Of a stretch of 27,821 nucleotides of DNA, positions 2,871 through 18,387 are shown one piece after another (the first letter of the stretch is position 1; each line of letters begins with the position of its first letter). The notes beneath the pieces were generated by a model, which saw only the letters and a list, made by a program, of their open reading frames with translations, was not told where the DNA came from and ran no database searches. The translations under genes and the position numbers were made by a program. This stretch comes from Desulfobaccales bacterium (GTDB lineage: Bacteria > Desulfobacterota > Desulfobaccia > Desulfobaccales > 0-14-0-80-60-11). The stretch covers positions 1 to 27,821 of the forward strand of contig DASWLF010000374.1 in assembly GCA_036396255.1 (NCBI GenBank), in the 5' to 3' direction.

Positions 2871-3764
2871 GTGGCAATTATGGATCAGGATCATCCCCAA
2901 GCAAACTCCACGGAGCCTCTGCTGGCTGCCTGGATCAAATGGACCATGGACTTCTGGGAGTCCATGACCCACATGGGGCCTGCCCATGAGGATCTGACCG
3001 GCGGGACGGACGATTTCTGGCAAGCGGCCCTGAAGATGTGGCAGGCCTTTTTCTCCCTGCTCAGTGAGCCGGAAACCGTAGCCGCGGTCTTCAAAGGAAT
3101 CAGGCCGCCCTCAGAGATCATCGTGAAGATGGCCCAGGCTGGCTGGGCGGGCTACTTTCATCTGCACCAGCAATGGCTGGAAGGGGGAGCCCTCAAGGAT
3201 GAGCCCCCTTCTGAAGCCTATGGGTTCGAAAACCTGGACCAAGACATCTTCAAGATCTGCACCGAAATTTACGAGAAGGACTTCCGGCAGTTGTTGAACC
3301 TGCCCCAGGTGGGGCTGACCCGTGTCTCCCAGGAACGCATCAACCGGGCCATGGACCGCTTCGGCCAGTTTCAGGCGGCCATGGCCGAATTCATCTATCT
3401 GCTCTACCTGCCCATGAAGAAATCCCTGCGGGAGATACATGGGGTTGAGACCGGCGAAGACAAGCCGGAAGAGTTCAAAGATTACTATCGCCGGTGGTTG
3501 AAGCTCCTGGAAGGGCACTACATGACCCTCTTCAAGTCGACGGAGTATACCCGGACTTTGAGCCACACCCTGGAGACCCTGGAAGATTTCACCCTGGCCA
3601 AACAGGAACTGCTGGCCAGTTCTCTGGAGGCCCTGCCCATTCCCACCCACCGGGACATGGATGAGCTTTATCGGGAGGTTTATCTCCTGAAGAAGCAGGT
3701 CAAGGAGCTGTCGAAAAAATTGGCCCAATTGGCCCCACCCCTGGAAGCGCCCGAGGAGATTTGA
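2871..3764 (+). CDS. phaE: Class III poly(3-hydroxyalkanoate) synthase subunit PhaE
   Basis: 297 aa helical protein with PQVGLTR, the YYRRWLKLLEGHYMTLFKSTEY segment and PTHRDMDELYREVYLLKKQVKEL. Overlaps the phaC start by 4 nt. The start could be the ATG at 2880. Confidence 0.85.
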   Translation: MAIMDQDHPQANSTEPLLAAWIKWTMDFWESMTHMGPAHEDLTGGTDDFWQAALKMWQAFFSLLSEPETVAAVFKGIRPPSEIIVKMAQAGWAGYFHLHQQWLEGGALKDEPPSEAYGFENLDQDIFKICTEIYEKDFRQLLNLPQVGLTRVSQERINRAMDRFGQFQAAMAEFIYLLYLPMKKSLREIHGVETGEDKPEEFKDYYRRWLKLLEGHYMTLFKSTEYTRTLSHTLETLEDFTLAKQELLASSLEALPIPTHRDMDELYREVYLLKKQVKELSKKLAQLAPPLEAPEEI

Positions 3765-4843
3765 TGGACCGCCCCAAAATTCCGGTGGACCTGATCCGGG
3801 CAATGCTGGCGGCCGACGCCGAAAAGGCCGCCCACCGTCTGGAAAAAGCCAGGGACGTGTTCCTTGGCCCCCTGGACACCGAGATCGCCGCCACCCCCCA
3901 TGAGCTGGTCTACCAGGAAGACCGGGTCAGCCTGAAGCATTACCGGCCCCAAGGGGCGCCGCGGCTGAAGACGCCGCTGTTCCTGGTGCACGCCCTGTTC
4001 AACCGGGAAACCCTGCTGGACCTGCAGCCGGACCGCAGCGTGGTGCTGAACCTTCTCAAAGAAGGGGTGGAGATCTATCTCGTTGATTGGGGCTCCCCCA
4101 CCCGGAAAGACCGGTATCTGACCCTGGACGACCACATCAACGGCTACCTGGACAACATGGTGGAGTTTATTTGCCGCCGGCACCGCCTCTCCCAGGTCAA
4201 TCTCATGGGGGTCTGTTTGGGGGGCACCTTTGGGGTAATCTATGCGGCCCTCCACCCGAAAAGGGTCAGGAACCTCATCACCACCGTGGCCCCCACCAAT
4301 TTCGATACCGATAAGGGTCTGCTCCATATCTGGATGAAAGAGATCGATGGGGACCGCCTGGTGGACACCTTCGGCAACCTTCCCGGCAATCTCCTGACCA
4401 TCACCTTGCTCCTGCTGAACCCGGCCCGGCTCCTGTTCGACAAGTACGTGGGCTTTCTGGAAAACATGGACAACAAGGAGTTCGTGGAGAACTTCATCCG
4501 CATGGAGAAATGGATCTTTGACAGCCCCGATGTCCCCGGGGAGACGTTGCGCCAGTTGATCAAAGACCTTTACCAGCAAAACCTGCTCCTCAAGGGGGAG
4601 ATGGAGCTGGGAGGCCGGCGGGTGGATCTGCAAAAAGTCGCCATGCCGCTGCTTAACATTTACGGCCAATATGACCACCTGGTGCCGCCGGAAGCCTGTG
4701 AGCTCCTGACCCGCGCCGTGGGCAGCAAGGATACGGAGGACATCTGCCTGGATACGGGCCACGTGGGCATCTATGTCAGCTCCCGGTTCCAGAAAGAGCT
4801 GGTCCCCAAGATCGCCTCCTGGCTTTTGCAACGAGACGATTGA
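3761..4843 (+). CDS. phaC: Class III poly(3-hydroxyalkanoate) synthase subunit PhaC
   Basis: 360 aa with lipase-like box GVCLGG (catalytic Cys), YGQYDHLV (Asp), DTGHVG (His), LDLQPDRSVV, DWG and MEKWIFDSPD. Confidence 0.95.
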   Translation: MMDRPKIPVDLIRAMLAADAEKAAHRLEKARDVFLGPLDTEIAATPHELVYQEDRVSLKHYRPQGAPRLKTPLFLVHALFNRETLLDLQPDRSVVLNLLKEGVEIYLVDWGSPTRKDRYLTLDDHINGYLDNMVEFICRRHRLSQVNLMGVCLGGTFGVIYAALHPKRVRNLITTVAPTNFDTDKGLLHIWMKEIDGDRLVDTFGNLPGNLLTITLLLLNPARLLFDKYVGFLENMDNKEFVENFIRMEKWIFDSPDVPGETLRQLIKDLYQQNLLLKGEMELGGRRVDLQKVAMPLLNIYGQYDHLVPPEACELLTRAVGSKDTEDICLDTGHVGIYVSSRFQKELVPKIASWLLQRDD

Positions 4844-4867
4844 GTTTCGAGTTTTGAGTTTCGAGTT
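4842..4867 (+). repeat. Heptamer tandem array (GAGTTTY)n, left arm
   Basis: GAGTTTC GAGTTTT GAGTTTC GAGTT, starting inside the phaC TGA stop codon. Confidence 0.9.
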
Positions 4868-4871
4868 GAAA

Positions 4872-5237
4872 ATGCGGATAAAGTCCACTTCTTATCGTGA
4901 TTTGGAAGTTTGGAAGAAGGCCATAAGCTTAGCAAAATTCATTTATGAAATTACTGCTCGTCTTCCTGCTAAAGAAATTTATGGATTAAGCAATCAATTG
5001 CAGAGAAGCGCGGTTTCGATTGGAGCAAACATCGCCGAAGGCCAGGCCCACAACTCCCGCAAGGAATTTAAATACTTTCTTGGTATTAGCCTTGGTTCTT
5101 TAGCTGAATTAGAGACTCTATTAACGATAGCCTCTGAAATAAATTATATTTCTGAGTCAACTCTTGAAGAAGTGAGCCAGCTAACAGATGAAATTACTCG
5201 AATGATCAAAGGCATTATTAAACATCTTTCAAAATAA
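4872..5237 (+). CDS. Four helix bundle protein (23S rRNA IVS protein/S23-like family)
   Basis: MRIKSTSYRDLEVWKKA...QLQRSAVSIGANIAEG...SLGSLAELETLL. ATG at 4872 (the ORF-track start at 4773 overlaps phaC). About 38% GC by hand count of 4921-5220. Confidence 0.9.
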   Translation: MRIKSTSYRDLEVWKKAISLAKFIYEITARLPAKEIYGLSNQLQRSAVSIGANIAEGQAHNSRKEFKYFLGISLGSLAELETLLTIASEINYISESTLEEVSQLTDEITRMIKGIIKHLSK

Positions 5238-5281
5238 AAACGAAATCCAACGGGTTAGAACTCCTGGAAAGCATAGATCCC

Positions 5282-5316
5282 AAAACCCAAAACTCAAAAC
5301 TCAAAACTCGAAACTC
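5282..5316 (-). repeat. Heptamer tandem array (RAAACTC)n, right arm, inverted relative to 4842-4867
   Basis: AAAACCC AAAACTC AAAACTC AAAACTC GAAACTC. Confidence 0.9.
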
Positions 5317-5330
5317 CAAGGAAACCTGCG

Positions 5331-6383
5331 ATGCCCGCAAAGCCTGAATTTTTCAAAACCATGTGCGGCCTGACCCAGGCCTTCGGCATGGCCAGGAACC
5401 GCAACGAACTGCTGGACCTGATCCTCCGAAGCGCCGTCCACACCCTCAAAGGCAAGGCTGCCTGTTTGTATCTGGCCCAACCGGGGAAGGAAGAGCTGCT
5501 GCCCGTGGCCCAGCAGGGTCTGTCCGATAGTTATTTCCGCTCCCGGAAGTCCAGGCTGAACCGGAAGATCATCCCCTTGGTCATGAAAGAGGGTTTTTTC
5601 TACAGTCGGGACGCCGCCGCCGACCCCCGACTGGAATTCCCGGCCGCCAAAAAGGCCGAAGGCATTGCCGCCATCCTGGCAGTGCCGGTCGTGGTAAAAG
5701 GGAGAACCATCGGGATCTTTTGCCTGTTCACCGACTCACCCCGGGAGTTCTCCCAGGCGGAGCGGCAGTTCCTGATTTTCCTGGCCCAGCAGGGCGGCGG
5801 GGTCATGGAGCACGCCCGCCTCATCGACCAGTGGCGCAGCGAAACCAAGCTGCTCTTCGACCTGGCCGTCAACCTCAGCGGCAGCCTGGATGTGAAGGAG
5901 ATCTTGCGGGCCATGTCCACCGACATCGCGGTGGCCCTGGGAGTTAAGGGCGCCTCCATCCGCCTGCTGGACGAAGACAAGCAGACCCTGGAGCTGGTGG
6001 CCTCTTACGGGCTGAGTGAAAAGTACCTGCAAAAAGGACCGGTGTCCGCCAGGAAGAGCATCGCCCAGGCCCTCAACGGCCAGAAACCGGTGATCATCGA
6101 AAATGCCGCCACGGACCGGCGGGTGCAGTACCGGAAGATGAACAAAGAGGAGGGCATCGTCACCATCCTCTCGGTGCCCATCAAAACCAAGGAGAAGGTC
6201 ATCGGGGTGCTGCGGCTCTATAGCAGGGTGAAACGGAACTTCACCCGGGATGAGATCATGCTGGTCACCGCCCTGGCCTACCTGGGGGGCCTGGCCATCC
6301 AGAATGCGTCGCTGTACCTCATGAGTCAGACGGACATCAAGGACCTGAAGGACGAATTATGGAGTCACCGTTCCTGGTTTTAG
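5331..6383 (+). CDS. Tandem GAF-domain protein with no output domain
   Basis: Two similar halves ending LAVPVVVKGRTIGIFCLF...FSQAERQFL and LSVPIKTKEKVIGVLRLY...FTRDEIMLV. AAGGA SD at 5318-5322. Confidence 0.85.
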   Translation: MPAKPEFFKTMCGLTQAFGMARNRNELLDLILRSAVHTLKGKAACLYLAQPGKEELLPVAQQGLSDSYFRSRKSRLNRKIIPLVMKEGFFYSRDAAADPRLEFPAAKKAEGIAAILAVPVVVKGRTIGIFCLFTDSPREFSQAERQFLIFLAQQGGGVMEHARLIDQWRSETKLLFDLAVNLSGSLDVKEILRAMSTDIAVALGVKGASIRLLDEDKQTLELVASYGLSEKYLQKGPVSARKSIAQALNGQKPVIIENAATDRRVQYRKMNKEEGIVTILSVPIKTKEKVIGVLRLYSRVKRNFTRDEIMLVTALAYLGGLAIQNASLYLMSQTDIKDLKDELWSHRSWF

Positions 6384-6561: not shown

Positions 6562-6876
6562 TCAGGCCCCGGACGCGCCCAGGGAAGACTCCAGCCGGGC
6601 CAGCCGTTCGTCGAGCTTGGAGAAAGAATCGGCCAGGCCCGCCGGTTGAGGCTGGGAGGTGAAGGACGGATGGTTCACCCACCAGTCCATGCCCAGCTCC
6701 CTGGCTTTGTCCACCGAGCAGATGACCAGGCGGATCTGGATGGTTAAAAGCTCCACCTCCACCAGGCTTATCTTGATATCCCCGGCGATGACAATGCCCT
6801 TATCCAGGAGCCTTTCCAGGAGATCCGCCAGGTTGGTGCTCTCCAGCGAGTGCTGGGTGGCGCGTTGAATAGCCAT
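6562..6876 (-). CDS. gvpJ: GvpA/GvpJ-family minor gas vesicle protein (GvpA3-like)
   Basis: MAIQRATQHSLESTNLADLLERLLDKGIVIAGDIKISLVEVELL... ATG at 6876 with an AGGAGG SD. It is the C-terminal part of ORF-track entry 6562..7254. Confidence 0.88.
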   Translation of the reverse strand: MAIQRATQHSLESTNLADLLERLLDKGIVIAGDIKISLVEVELLTIQIRLVICSVDKARELGMDWWVNHPSFTSQPQPAGLADSFSKLDERLARLESSLGASGA

Positions 6877-6887
6877 TTGGGTCCTCC

Positions 6888-7247
6888 TTACCTGAGCTTT
6901 CCCAGGGGACCGAGGTCGATGTTCAAGTCCTCTTCCTCCAGGCCGAATTCCTGCCGGAGCCGTTCGATCTCCCGGGCCTGCCTCATCAGAGTGAGGCCGA
7001 GGCGCTCGATTTCCGCCTCGGTGAGGGTCCCGCCTTCGATGCGCCGGATTCCCTGCCGCTCCAGAAGCTCGTGCAGTAATTTTACGAGAGTCAGAACCAG
7101 CTGGGCCAGGCCGTTCTTGCCGTTGCCCTCCTCCAGGTTTAGGCGGGGGCCCCGGCCTCTGGGGGCGGTCAAATCCCGGCGGCCCTGCATTACCCTGGCA
7201 AAATCGCCCAGGGCCTGGGACTCCACGGCGGCCGGCGGCCCCTTCAT
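6888..7247 (-). CDS. gvpK: Gas vesicle protein GvpK
   Basis: GLAQLVLTLVKLLHELLERQGIRRIEGGTLTEAEIERLG...LNIDLGPLGKL is the GvpK signature. Confidence 0.92.
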   Translation of the reverse strand: MKGPPAAVESQALGDFARVMQGRRDLTAPRGRGPRLNLEEGNGKNGLAQLVLTLVKLLHELLERQGIRRIEGGTLTEAEIERLGLTLMRQAREIERLRQEFGLEEEDLNIDLGPLGKLR

Positions 7248-7465
7248 GGGTCAACTCCCAGGCAGCTGCCCATCTCCCCGGCGGACCTGAGCTCCCGGGC
7301 AGTATCCAGGGAACTCAGGATGAGCTGCAGCCCCAGGTAGATGAGATCGATATTGGCCACGGAAATCATCACTTCTCCCACGACTACCGCACCCTTGTTG
7401 AGGACCCGGTCCAGGGCCTCGCACAAAGAGACCCGCTCCAGATCATCCAGGAATGGGTCGGACAT
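7244..7465 (-). CDS. GvpA/GvpJ/GvpS-family minor gas vesicle protein (GvpA2-like)
   Basis: MSDPFLDDLERVSLCEALDRVLNKGAVVVGEVMISVANIDLIYLGLQL. ATG at 7465 with a GGGAGA SD. 4-nt overlap with gvpK. Confidence 0.85.
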   Translation of the reverse strand: MSDPFLDDLERVSLCEALDRVLNKGAVVVGEVMISVANIDLIYLGLQLILSSLDTARELRSAGEMGSCLGVDP

Positions 7466-9446
7466 AGGGTCTCCCGGAAGGGCAAGGCGAACCGGCCCCC
7501 TTCCGGCCCGGGCGGTCATAAAGGACGGGGCGCCGCCCCCGGGGCTGGTAGAGGTTTTGCCCCAGCCCGGCCAGGCGCTTAAGGCCCCGGGGTTCATCCT
7601 GCCGGTAGACCAGGGTCAGGTGCCGGTCCTTGAACTTTCGCAGGAACCGGGCCTTGACCTGGGCTTCCCTCAGATTCATGGCGGCACAAAGCGGACAGGG
7701 GGCGGCCGGGGTGGCCTGGTTGAGAAACAGCACCGGCGTCGGCAGACCCAGCCGCTGGCAGGCCGCCACCAGGTCTGCCGTCTCCCTGAAGGCCATTTCG
7801 GTGAGCCCGGCCACGACATAAACCGCGGTCCGGTCCGGGTCGCACCACAGCTTCCGGAGTCGCTTTAAGCCCTTGGAAATCCTTACCAGGCGCTGAGAGA
7901 ACCCCGGCATCCGAAAAGCCAACCTGTACTTCAAGAGCACGCCGAAAAAGCCCTTGAGCCACTGGTCCATGATCTCCGGCATTTCCAGGAGGCGGAGCAG
8001 GTGGCCGGTGGGGGCCGCATCCAGGACAAAAAGGTGGAACGGGCCTTGCTCCAGAAAGTCCAGGGTCCGGGTCAAGGCCATGATTTCGTCCAGGCCCGGG
8101 GGCGACAGCTCCAGAAGCTGCTCCAGCGCCCGGCGGTCAAAGGGCAGGTCGAAGCCGCGGCCCAATGGTTCCAGGAAGCGCTCCAGACCCTGGCGAAACT
8201 CCCTTTTGAGGGAGTCCAGTTCCCTGGCCGGGTCCATTTCCATGGCCATGAGAGCCGGCAGGACCCGGGTGGGTTCCGGGCCCAGGCGCATCTTCAGGCA
8301 GTCCGCCAGGGAATGAGCCGGGTCGGTGGAGACGAGCAGGATCTCCTGGCCTTTCAAGTCCTGGGCCAGGCGCAGCGCGGTGGCGCAAGCCAGGGTGGTC
8401 TTGCCCACTCCGCCTTTGCCGGCGAAAATCAGAAACCTGCTCTGGGAGGAGGGGAGAGCCGGGGCGTCCTCCACCCGGGGGGGAAGGGGGAAAATCCTGG
8501 GCGGGGCCGGGGCCTCGCCGGGCATAAGTCTGGCGGCGCTGCCCCAGAATTTCTCCAGAGACTTGCCCCGCACTTCCCACCGGTGCAGCGGCACCCCCCA
8601 GAGATCACATCCGGCCAGGGCCTCGGCGTCGGCAAGCCCCTGGATGATCCGGCGCTGGCGCCGGCGCGCCCCGGTGCACCCCGGGCAAGGGCTTTCGGGG
8701 ATGAGCCGGTTGATCACGATCTCGGAAACCGGCACCTGGAGCCGCTTGAGGGCCTGGAGAAGGTCCAGCGTCTCCTGGACCGCCATCTCCTCGGCCAGCA
8801 TCACCGGCACAAACCGGCAGCGGCCGGGGTCCTTAAGCAGGGCTTCCAGACGCTTTAGAGATTTGGCCAGATCCAGCAGGAAGGCGTCCACTTCATCGGC
8901 CGGGCACGCCCCGTTGAACCGCCTTCTCAGGAAGCGGTGCTTGGCCAGCAAGGTGTCCAGGACCCCCAGCCAGCGGCGGAGCAGCTCCGGCATGGTGAGC
9001 AGCCGCAGGGTGTGGCCGGTGGGGGCGGTGTCCACCACCAGGGTGTCGTATCTCCGGGCTGCCGCCGTCCGGGAGATCTCCAGCAGCGCCATGAGCTCGT
9101 CCAGGCCGGGCAGGGAAAGATCCAGGAAATGGCCCAAGTCCTCCTCGTCCAGAAAGGTGCCACGCAGGGCGATCTCCCGGAGCTTCTGGCGGTGCTCGGC
9201 CTGGAAAGCCGCCAGGGCGCCGCGGGCGTCCAACTCCAGGACGGTCAGGTTGGCAGGCGGGGTCAGGCCGGCGAGGCTGTCCCCCACGGAATGGGCCGGA
9301 TCAGTGGAGATGAGCAGAAAAGCGGCCCGGGGAGAGGAGCGGGCCAGCTGCAAGGCCGCGGCCGTGGCGCAGGTAGTCTTTCCCACCCCGCCTTTACCGC
9401 CGAAGAAGAGCAGCTTGAGGCCATGACCCTCCAAAAAAGTGAGCAT
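7443..9446 (-). CDS. Tandem two-domain ArsA/Get3-family ATPase
   Basis: Two copies each of GKGGVGKT, STDPAHS, PGLDE and D(T/A)APTGH, plus a C-terminal CxxC in each domain (CPGC, CPLC). Confidence 0.92.
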   Translation of the reverse strand: MLTFLEGHGLKLLFFGGKGGVGKTTCATAAALQLARSSPRAAFLLISTDPAHSVGDSLAGLTPPANLTVLELDARGALAAFQAEHRQKLREIALRGTFLDEEDLGHFLDLSLPGLDELMALLEISRTAAARRYDTLVVDTAPTGHTLRLLTMPELLRRWLGVLDTLLAKHRFLRRRFNGACPADEVDAFLLDLAKSLKRLEALLKDPGRCRFVPVMLAEEMAVQETLDLLQALKRLQVPVSEIVINRLIPESPCPGCTGARRRQRRIIQGLADAEALAGCDLWGVPLHRWEVRGKSLEKFWGSAARLMPGEAPAPPRIFPLPPRVEDAPALPSSQSRFLIFAGKGGVGKTTLACATALRLAQDLKGQEILLVSTDPAHSLADCLKMRLGPEPTRVLPALMAMEMDPARELDSLKREFRQGLERFLEPLGRGFDLPFDRRALEQLLELSPPGLDEIMALTRTLDFLEQGPFHLFVLDAAPTGHLLRLLEMPEIMDQWLKGFFGVLLKYRLAFRMPGFSQRLVRISKGLKRLRKLWCDPDRTAVYVVAGLTEMAFRETADLVAACQRLGLPTPVLFLNQATPAAPCPLCAAMNLREAQVKARFLRKFKDRHLTLVYRQDEPRGLKRLAGLGQNLYQPRGRRPVLYDRPGRKGAGSPCPSGRPYVRPIPG

Positions 9447-17467: not shown

Positions 17468-18387
17468 GGGTCGGTCTCCATGGTCAGGGAAGGAGAGAAG
17501 CTATACGGCGGCCAGGGGCCGGTGCATTCAAAGACCAGGCCGTAGGGGCTATGAAGGCGGTTGGCCGCTTCGATCCTGGCCTTGAAGCCGAAGGCGGCCG
17601 CCTTGGGAACCAGATAAGCCCAATTCAGAATCATTTCCTGGCCGCTGCCGTTGCCGCCCCGGTCCGAGAGCCGCCCCTGGGCCCAGTGCAGGGCGCAATC
17701 CTGAAGCGCCGCGCCCAACTCCTGGCAGACTTCCCGGAGCCAGCGGGGAAGCTCCCGCTCGGCCACCCGCCGCAGACGCTGTTCCTCCAGGTATCTCCGG
17801 CCGGCCGGCAGACCATCCAGGCGGTCCCCTTCCTGGGCCAGCCGCTGGGCCAGGTGCGCTTCCAGGGCCAGGGCCCTGGTCAGCAACCCCTTGACCGCCC
17901 ATTCCTCCTGGTCCGCCACCCGGTCCAGGAACCGGGCCACCGTATCGTGGTGGACCCGTAAGAGCTGCTCCAGCCTTTCCCGGCAGGTGAACAGGGTGCC
18001 GAACCGGGCCGGCAACACCGGAGAGTTACGCATCACCGCCTCCACCACCTCCTGGTGGCGGCAGGCCCGGGGGCCCACCCAGGATAGGTCTTGCAAGTGG
18101 TGGGCGGCTTCCGGCCCGCAGAACTCCTCCAGAGGAACCTCGCAATAGATAGCCGCGAGATCCCCCAAACTCGCCAGACACAAAGGGCGCCCGTCCAGGC
18201 CGGCTCCCGGCAGGGGCGGCAGGAGGCTCAAACGGGCCAGGCAAAAGAGGTAAAGGCCGGAAGCTATCCCAGGGGTTTCAGGGATATTTTTTTCGCCTTT
18301 TCGCCTTTTCGCCTTTTGCCCCGAGGCACTTGGCGGAAAAGAGATTTGTTTATCCAAAGTTAGTCCCCTATCCAGGGCGGGGCTCAC
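17464..18387 (-). CDS. GvpF/GvpL-family protein (GvpF2-like)
   Basis: GLYLFCL, VLPARFGTLF, EEWAVK, LNWAYLV and GPWPPYSF. Start is GTG 18387 (GTGA overlap) or TTG 18357. Confidence 0.9.
   Translation of the reverse strand: MSPALDRGLTLDKQISFPPSASGQKAKRRKGEKNIPETPGIASGLYLFCLARLSLLPPLPGAGLDGRPLCLASLGDLAAIYCEVPLEEFCGPEAAHHLQDLSWVGPRACRHQEVVEAVMRNSPVLPARFGTLFTCRERLEQLLRVHHDTVARFLDRVADQEEWAVKGLLTRALALEAHLAQRLAQEGDRLDGLPAGRRYLEEQRLRRVAERELPRWLREVCQELGAALQDCALHWAQGRLSDRGGNGSGQEMILNWAYLVPKAAAFGFKARIEAANRLHSPYGLVFECTGPWPPYSFSPSLTMETDP
18290..18320. repeat. Octamer tandem repeat (TTTTCGCC)x3 + TTTTGCC inside the gvpF/L 5' coding region
   Basis: Units at 18290, 18298 and 18306, then a 7-nt variant at 18314. 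Confidence 0.85.

Follow-up and report, generated by a model that had tools for sequence, protein, structure and literature searches.

Between phaC and the GAF gene of the operon studied here lies a 475-bp unit in which a single four-helix-bundle gene is enclosed by inverted arrays of tandem heptamers, and comparison with related genomes showed that this unit is an insertion. The unit belongs to a repeat system that extends across the genome and is not a minimal transposon complete in itself. The reading that we prefer, to which a probability of about one half was assigned, is that of a stem-loop cassette of the type known from 23S rRNA intervening sequences (IVS), placed here in an mRNA operon, which would have entered once the genus had separated from its sister genus and would have been lost twice within the genus since.

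The window, i.e., the whole 27,821-nt stretch of DNA that was analyzed, belongs to a MAG (G000) of 2.56 Mb in 564 contigs, which is 81% complete. On its forward strand, phaE (class III PHA synthase subunit E, 2871–3764; PF09712, 1.5e-19, and TIGR01834) and phaC (class III PHA synthase subunit C, 3761–4843; TIGR01836, 3.8e-124, above the cut-off) are followed by the left (5′) arm, a G/T-rich array of 3.7 GAGTTTC/GAGTTTT units placed by repeat analysis at 4840–4867, and by the four-helix-bundle gene (4872–5237, 121 aa; PF05635/TIGR02436, from the ORF and HMM analyses). The cassette continues with a 3′ untranslated spacer (5238–5280, read from the sequence and partly conserved in G003, a genome of the same genus) and ends with the right (3′) arm (5281–5316), a C/A-rich array of about five CAAAACY/CGAAACT units that complements the left one. 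An AAGGAA motif and a double-GAF-domain gene (PF13185, 8e-33) form the downstream neighbor (5318–6383).

The sequence-only reading had reported an arm pair, a gene and a clean operon site, and this observation was confirmed as real. Its description of the arms (a 475-bp unit with ends that are 25/26 complementary and built from GAGTTTY) held base for base: the inverted repeat 4842–4867/5291–5316 measures 26 nt, is complementary at 25 of 26 positions (96%), and leaves 423 nt between the arms. Each arm is a run of tandem heptamers, with GAGTTTC/GAGTTTT units in the left one and their complement in the right one. The triple-heptamer pattern GAGTTTYGAGTTTYGAGTT gave five matches in the window, all of them within the two arms, compared with 0 expected from 100 shuffles. 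Tandem Repeats Finder, at period 7, returned 3.7 copies for 4842–4867 and 5.7 copies for 5279–5319, so that the right array is the longer one. The insert was also as AT-rich as had been stated, with a GC content of 0.34–0.44 within the unit versus 0.55–0.67 in the flanks and 0.612 in the whole genome, and the proposed reading frame, with its ATG at 4872, was correct.

The insert is bordered by the stop codon of phaC on one side and by the ribosome-binding site of the GAF gene on the other. The stop codon (TGA, 4841–4843) overlaps the first left-arm unit, while the right arm ends at 5316 and is followed by AAGGAA at 5318–5323 and by the ATG of the intact GAF gene at 5331; the clean junctions and undamaged neighbors noted earlier were thereby recovered. 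A motif of the AAGGAA type also precedes the GAF start in most empty-site relatives, as seen in the junction comparison. The filled allele was matched over 4300–5309 with 0 differences by X1, a DNA contig from an independent public run, and is therefore not an assembly artifact of the GCA_036396255.1 record.

Neither a transposase nor a target duplication was seen in the cassette or at its ends, in agreement with the earlier observation, and a comparison of filled with empty alleles revealed no direct repeat at the junctions. GGTTAG was considered as a target duplication on account of a faint likeness between the left junction and 5247–5252, which failed in G003. The defense-system libraries yielded no PADLOC match.

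Empty-site alleles in relatives had been proposed as the feature to look for, and they were found. PhaC was searched in 60 relatives, and the junction was read in the 14 that possess the operon. In 11 genomes representing six other genera, phaC was joined directly to GAF across 49–142 bp containing no gene and no arrays; in the sister genus, the site was empty in all four genomes, with at most one or two degenerate units. The unit is a discrete insert because relatives have empty sites.

Within the genus, the cassette was present at the same site in G003, where the encoded protein was 78.5% identical to that of G000 and the arms had partly drifted to GTTTTTA and GTTTCTA units. In G001, a 69-bp phaC–GAF spacer retained the right array alone, and in G002 a 38-bp spacer retained the left array alone. 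A third empty allele was observed on a contig of an RNA-seq-labelled run, from an organism approximately 92% identical; here, position 4847 was joined to 5289, with four other letters at the join, which corresponds to one left unit plus the right array. In a tree of PhaC and GAF, the four genus members grouped together, and the order within the genus was not resolved. The history with the fewest events has a single gain in the lineage of the genus, followed by two deletions that arose independently and took the gene and one arm each.

Comparison of flanks defined 14 cassette sites in the genus, with 25 copies in four genomes, and turnover was evident among them. Site A was filled in all four genomes; the arms were hexameric (GTTTTTA) in two of them and heptameric (GGTTTTC) in the remaining two, the change having affected left and right arm jointly; the site A proteins were 65–71% identical across the site, no closer than to a GGTTTTC-armed copy elsewhere (72–74%). 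At site L, the gene was present in G001, and like arms held a 270-bp repeat element in G003. Similarly, site G contained the gene in G000 and other cargo between like arms in G001, and site N contained the gene in G003 and other arms with other cargo in G000 and G001. A left-arm remnant was kept at site H in G000, and a clean 32-bp spacer was found at site D in G002. At sites E, F, K, and M, REP-like GGGGAGGG...CCCTCCCC hairpins were present where the cassette was missing.

The copies at site L of G001 and site N of G003 shared common arm units, with an identity of 83% at the protein level and 77% at the DNA level, which is as close as same-site orthologues, indicating that a cassette has moved to another site in the genus. 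Neither a target duplication nor a recombinase was found within or next to any of the 25 copies of the genus. The turnover patterns appear to be better explained by exchange and loss through recombination or slippage inside the arrays than by transposition.

The arms proved to be a regular companion of the gene family. G000 encodes seven PF05635 genes, and all seven lie between inverted arrays of 6–7-nt units, the unit being different for each (GTTTTTR, GGTTTTC, GTTTTCT, CAGGGGY, GGTTCTG, CAGTGGY, and GAGTTTY); arrays around paralogues, which the sequence-only reading had suggested tabulating, were thus the rule in this genome. Across the order, arms scoring at least 14 were found for 44 of 52 copies versus 20 of 208 cross-paired controls, in which the upstream flank of one copy was matched to the downstream flank of another, and the period was 7 in nearly all cases. 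Among the best 80 matches in a collection of species genomes, approximately 40 of 71 usable copies were armed, and these belonged to Bacteroidota, Acidobacteriota, Firmicutes, Planctomycetota, Proteobacteria, Chloroflexota, and other phyla.

The arm unit tracks the protein clade. In the genus tree, T-rich units were associated with one protein clade, CAGTGGY-like units with a second one, and GGGGAAAA and GTTCAAG with two deep branches. When the unit class was mapped on a tree of 73 armed copies, 18 changes were needed, compared with 32–37 in the first ten of the 200 shuffles of the labels. For 35 copies from different genomes, protein and unit distances were correlated with a Mantel r of 0.17, a value reached in one of 2000 permutations.

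The same units were abundant outside the cassettes. Arrays of at least three units numbered 164 in G000 at period 7, compared with 19, 71, 10, and 2 at periods 5, 6, 8, and 9, respectively. The commonest array units, GGTTTTC (51), GAGTTTC plus GAGTTTT (31), GTTTTCT (12), and CAGGGGY (11), are the arm units of resident cassettes. Inverted array pairs no more than 1.5 kb apart were found 18 times, with loops of 10 to 474 bp, and 16 of them contained no four-helix-bundle gene. When 14 of the gene-less loops were compared (the two shortest being left out), no similarity to one another or to the gene was detected, and the idea that these pairs are internally deleted cassettes was rejected on this ground.

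Triple-unit counts were two to six times higher in genomes with the cognate cassette for three of four units (GAGTTTC, GGTTTTC, and partly GGGGAAAA), a trend taken from four related genomes that do not amount to a statistical sample. Strict dependence of the arrays on a resident cognate gene was not supported, as arrays persisted where the gene was not found: GGGGAAAA in G000 (60 windows), GGTTTTC in G003 (60 windows), and GTTCAAG in G002. The 164 arrays with like units, the 16 gene-less pairs and the other cargo in sister species show that the arms are not the gene's alone. Accordingly, of the minimal element proposed from the sequence, the discrete insert stood, while its self-contained nature did not.

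The protein matched PF05635 (23S_rRNA_IVP) with 2.1e-38 and 131.2 bits (cut-off 33.8) over model positions 1–106 of 106, and TIGR02436 with 3.9e-37 and 126.8 bits (cut-off 24); its earlier assignment to the IVS-protein family was therefore upheld by both models above their curated cut-offs. Its relatives in the PDB were 2gsc (XCC0516, 1.9e-18) and 2rld (1.7e-07). Strong purifying selection acts on the protein: dN/dS was 0.04–0.12 in 11 within-genus cassette pairs, including 0.08 for the window gene and its G003 orthologue, compared with 0.12 for phaC and 0.18 for GAF, and only one of the 25 genus copies was a pseudogene. Between G000 and G003, dS was three times higher in the cassette (1.50) than in its flanks (0.42 and 0.53), an excess not expected from purely vertical inheritance, either because the low-GC insert mutates faster or because the alleles predate the species split. 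In two published reports, members of the PF05635 family also appear inside cas loci, where they are passed over without comment.

According to the preferred reading, that of an IVS-type stem-loop cassette in an mRNA operon, the cassette would have no promoter of its own and would be read through from phaEC. One weak promoter-like site was detected in the cassette, inside the ORF and at the level expected by chance, and no T run of a terminator follows the long stem. Armed cassettes were sense to both neighbors in 46 cases and antisense to both in 8; together with the lack of a convincing promoter, this excess on the sense strand would fit expression by read-through of the host operon.

In the transcript, the arms would pair into a duplex of at least 26 bp, with about 420 nt looped out. 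The pairing into a stem of about 26 bp that had been suggested earlier was present in the predicted folds of the RNA from 4820 to 5340, where the MFE and centroid structures alike contain a terminal stem of 26 bp. Such pairing would set the phaC stop codon beside the GAF ribosome-binding site, so that little harm would be done to the operon. The ATG lies 4 nt past the left arm, which means that any ribosome-binding site of the cassette gene falls inside the stem. By analogy with 23S rRNA intervening sequences, the duplex would be a likely substrate of RNase III, the gene for which is encoded in G000, and cleavage would release a small mRNA, freeing the start codon that otherwise lies at the base of the stem. 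The protein would most likely recognize arrays of its cognate heptamer, in the arms of its own cassette as well as in gene-less arrays of like unit. Turnover would proceed without a transposase, the arrays serving as portable homology: recombination would swap cargo between like arms, and deletions would take the gene together with one arm.

Two further properties of the arms were recorded. The first is the order of the arms. The G-rich array came first in 17 of the 18 pairs of G000, with none reversed, and in the 5′ arm of 44 armed cassettes G+T exceeded A+C in 39 and G exceeded C in 36. Because a pair is an inverted repeat, this order is true on both strands, and it was also observed in pairs with loops of 10–24 nt. 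Avoidance of an exposed C-rich Rho loading site in long loops would explain the chirality of the cassettes, but not that of the pairs with 10–24-nt loops.

The second is the nature of the mismatches. G:U asymmetry was evaluated as a sign of a sense-RNA stem and rejected: with 21 GT-type versus 16 AC-type mismatches, the arms tolerated G:U no more than A:C on the sense strand, and the mismatches thus give no specific sign of a sense-RNA stem. They are equally compatible with a DNA hairpin or with selection acting on both strands, and the duplex could be relevant at the DNA level, in RNA from either strand, or only as a trace of history. In the assembled contigs of the two RNA-type runs that contained any of the region, depth was zero over 4894–5271, which is uninformative and not a negative result.

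Alternatively, the unit may be a mobile element at the DNA level, with the arrays acting as terminal inverted repeats or as a cruciform or hairpin, the gene-less pairs as its non-autonomous relatives, and recognition provided either by a recombinase whose gene lies elsewhere or by the encoded four-helix-bundle protein together with host enzymes. The missing G:U bias and a G-first chirality that holds for both strands agree with it, as do the filled and empty sites, the related copies at different sites, and the many gene-less pairs with arm units of gene-bearing copies. This explanation was nevertheless considered rather unlikely, since neither a target duplication nor a recombinase accompanies the 25 genus copies, arm length varies between left and right and among species, and the gene-less loops, unlike those of MITEs, resemble neither one another nor the gene. 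Moreover, paralogues of the same genome are just 34–76% identical and differ in their arms, which speaks against a recent burst.

A host regulatory system was judged to have a similarly low probability. The arrays would then be operator-like or RNA-level sites scattered over intergenic regions, and the paralogues specific binders, each autoregulated between its own sites, in place of a selfish insert. The strong purifying selection on every copy would be accounted for in this way, as would the single unit family per paralogue, with these units being the commonest in the genome, the location of arrays at gene ends, and the two- to sixfold higher array numbers with the cognate gene for three of four units; paired tandem repeats of Geobacter have likewise been proposed as binding sites of global regulators (PMC2700814). 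Rapid gain and loss of cassettes among four species of one genus, however, is at odds with such a role, and cassette sites are otherwise occupied by unrelated repeat elements. The low GC and patchy distribution of the cassettes also count against it, as does the persistence of arrays after loss of the cognate gene, and we know of no DNA-binding fold in the PF05635 family.

It is less probable still that the paralogues are specificity factors of a repeat-making system, each directing or maintaining its own heptamer arrays, with the cassettes as autonomous members and the approximately 150 other arrays as footprints. A like repeat would be added to both 3′ ends of a break, followed by fill-in and rejoining, either with captured DNA in between or without it. 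Such extension would give a fixed G/T-rich-first chirality on both strands, even with 10-nt loops. If true, it would represent telomere-like healing and capture in bacteria, and also an origin of rRNA intervening sequences.

A stray Avd gene of a diversity-generating retroelement was effectively refuted: the relation to Avd that the sequence-only reading had drawn is visible as matches to bAvd (PF22296, 1.4e-08) and NF033474 (3.7e-07), yet both are weak and well below the curated cut-offs (35.6 vs. 40 and 30.4 vs. 80, respectively), a reverse transcriptase (PF00078) was absent from G000 (81% complete), G001 (93%), and G002, with one present in G003, and no pair of template and variable repeats was found near the gene. 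Members of the Avd family form pentamers that hold nucleic acid and polymerase together, and PDB entry 4DWL is a bAvd structure. The cassette protein resembles Avd as a distant homologue with a four-helix-bundle fold, and differs in having neither a reverse transcriptase partner nor a template repeat and in its sub-threshold HMM scores.

The results join three separate puzzles, namely the origin of 23S rRNA IVS, the function of the very large PF05635 family (with the exception of Avd), and the surplus of heptamer repeats seen in bacteria. They are joined by two facts: PF05635 genes are found inside heptamer stems in ordinary operons, and their arm units are the dominant heptamers of the genome. 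At 14 sites in four sister species, gain, loss, arm-only remnants, and exchange of cargo can be followed. If, as the IVS-type reading implies, the stem neutralizes an insertion within an operon, the cassette would also offer a natural design for insulated gene cassettes.

Intergenic heptamer arrays similar to those described here include the STRR heptamers of cyanobacteria. Small, intergenic units that are bounded by inverted repeats and present in many copies per genome are also known as MITEs and REP elements, and REP-like hairpins fill identical intergenic sites in sister species. The cassettes differ from both in having no conserved interior and no target duplication, in arms that are tandem arrays with a unit varying from copy to copy, and in that one class carries a conserved protein gene.

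The closest known counterparts are the ORF-bearing 23S rRNA IVS of Coxiella burnetii and Leptospira, in which the same protein family is encoded in the loop. A 28-bp stem, tandem heptamers, and an S23p ORF are found in the Coxiella IVS, which is cut by RNase III midway along the stem (Warrier et al. 2016, PMC4990558). The two kinds of element share a unit length of approximately 430–480 nt and a stem of approximately 26–28 bp formed by terminal inverted repeats (PMC4990558), as well as tandem heptamers at the 5′ end and the lack of a transposase. A mobile past has been suggested for the 23S IVS (PMC4990558) and would be shared by the cassette. In contrast to them, the cassette resides in the phaC–GAF operon and not in helix 25 or 45 of 23S rRNA, and its two arms consist purely of heptamer arrays. 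The ORF of the Coxiella IVS is undergoing decay (PMC4990558), whereas the cassette protein is under strong purifying selection. RNase III cutting, shown for the Coxiella IVS, is predicted for the cassette by analogy. Since the defining location in 23S rRNA does not apply, the cassette was not classed as an IVS.

Intergenic G-rich heptamer repeats arranged as convergent inverted pairs have been described in Xanthomonas and Nostoc (Rehm et al. 2015, PMC4692102). Xanthomonas genomes contain 70–75 convergent pairs, with the repeat number varying by strain, the G-rich strand following a stop codon and the C-rich strand preceding the next ORF (PMC4692102). The arms in the window have the same layout, being convergent tandem heptamers with the G-rich array after a stop codon and its complement before an ORF. 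However, no gene family was named for the repeats of Rehm et al., which were read as formers of G-quadruplexes (PMC4692102). Most units of G000 (GAGTTTC, GGTTTTC, GTTTTCT) are unable to form quadruplexes, and, unlike those repeats, the unit families of G000 match the arms of resident PF05635 genes. In Geobacter metallireducens, paired tandem repeats of 7–9 nt on opposite strands, with variable spacing and many intergenic copies, were reported (Aklujkar et al. 2009, PMC2700814); they are described there just as multicopy nucleotide sequences, with no link to PF05635 or to insertion and loss (PMC2700814).

No description of a heptamer-armed operon cassette was found in the papers searched that mention the PF05635 family, and what we found already in print were only the parts, i.e., the Coxiella IVS and the Xanthomonas heptamer pairs. 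New here are the 164 arrays among which cassette arm units are the commonest, the sixteen gene-less pairs, which enclose unrelated sequence, the G-rich-first order, and the presence of differing arms or cargo at identical sites in sister species.

Synonymous divergence was compared between the window genome and G003, a genome of the same genus that carries the cassette at the same phaC-GAF position. Between the window gene (4872-5237) and its G003 counterpart (locus L009), dS reached 1.50 for the cassette gene, while phaC and GAF yielded 0.42 and 0.53, respectively, corresponding to an approximately threefold higher synonymous divergence of the cassette gene in the same two genomes. A similar synonymous excess was observed at cassette sites A and B, and was absent at site D.

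The longest pair built from GAGTTTY, the unit of the window cassette, was found in the window genome at C10:7273-7610. It consists of a 105-nt array and a 74-nt complement, separated by a 159-bp loop containing no gene. The window itself also carries an octamer array, TTTTCGCC x 3.5 (18290-18344), whose complement, GGCGAAAA, resembles GGGGAAAA, the arm unit of another cassette type. A lone GGCGGAAAA follows 15 nt after this array. The C-rich side comes first here, an order opposite to that of all heptamer pairs.

A three-array cassette was observed at a single site shared by the congeneric genomes G001 and G003 (L041:1882-2499, minus strand, and the same place in L034), comprising a GTTCAAG array, a low-GC 205-aa ORF with no Pfam match, a CTTGAAC array, the four-helix-bundle gene and a second CTTGAAC array. 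The arrays on either side of the four-helix-bundle gene are therefore in direct orientation, whereas two genes lie within the outermost inverted pair (GTTCAAG/CTTGAAC).

PF05635 matches, at least seven in number, were clustered within about 21 kb (C1:3065483-3086641) of G039, a complete genome from the order. Every match was interrupted in frame by one or two stop codons, which were TAG and, in two matches, TAA as well; identical scores were obtained for four of them. These matches may be recent duplicates, or parts of repeated units such as rRNA operons.

Small ORFs of the window at 6562-7597 (minus strand) have translations that, judged by eye, resemble structural proteins of gas vesicles (GvpA/J type); they adjoin a putative double ArsA/GET3-like ATPase of 667 aa (7443-9446).

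A second intergenic hairpin repeat family, GGGGAGGG...loop...CCCTCCCC, frequently paired, was located in the window genome (C201:1854-2101 and C121:1-180) and at sites E and F of G001 and G003 (L176, L177, L182, L183). In sister species, four-helix-bundle cassettes occupy the same intergenic sites as these hairpins. Another repeat, about 70-190 bp long and dispersed (e.g., L035:668-869), was present at dozens of places per genome in G001-G003, with copies 72-97% identical; it is unrelated to the heptamer arrays and is REP- or MITE-like.
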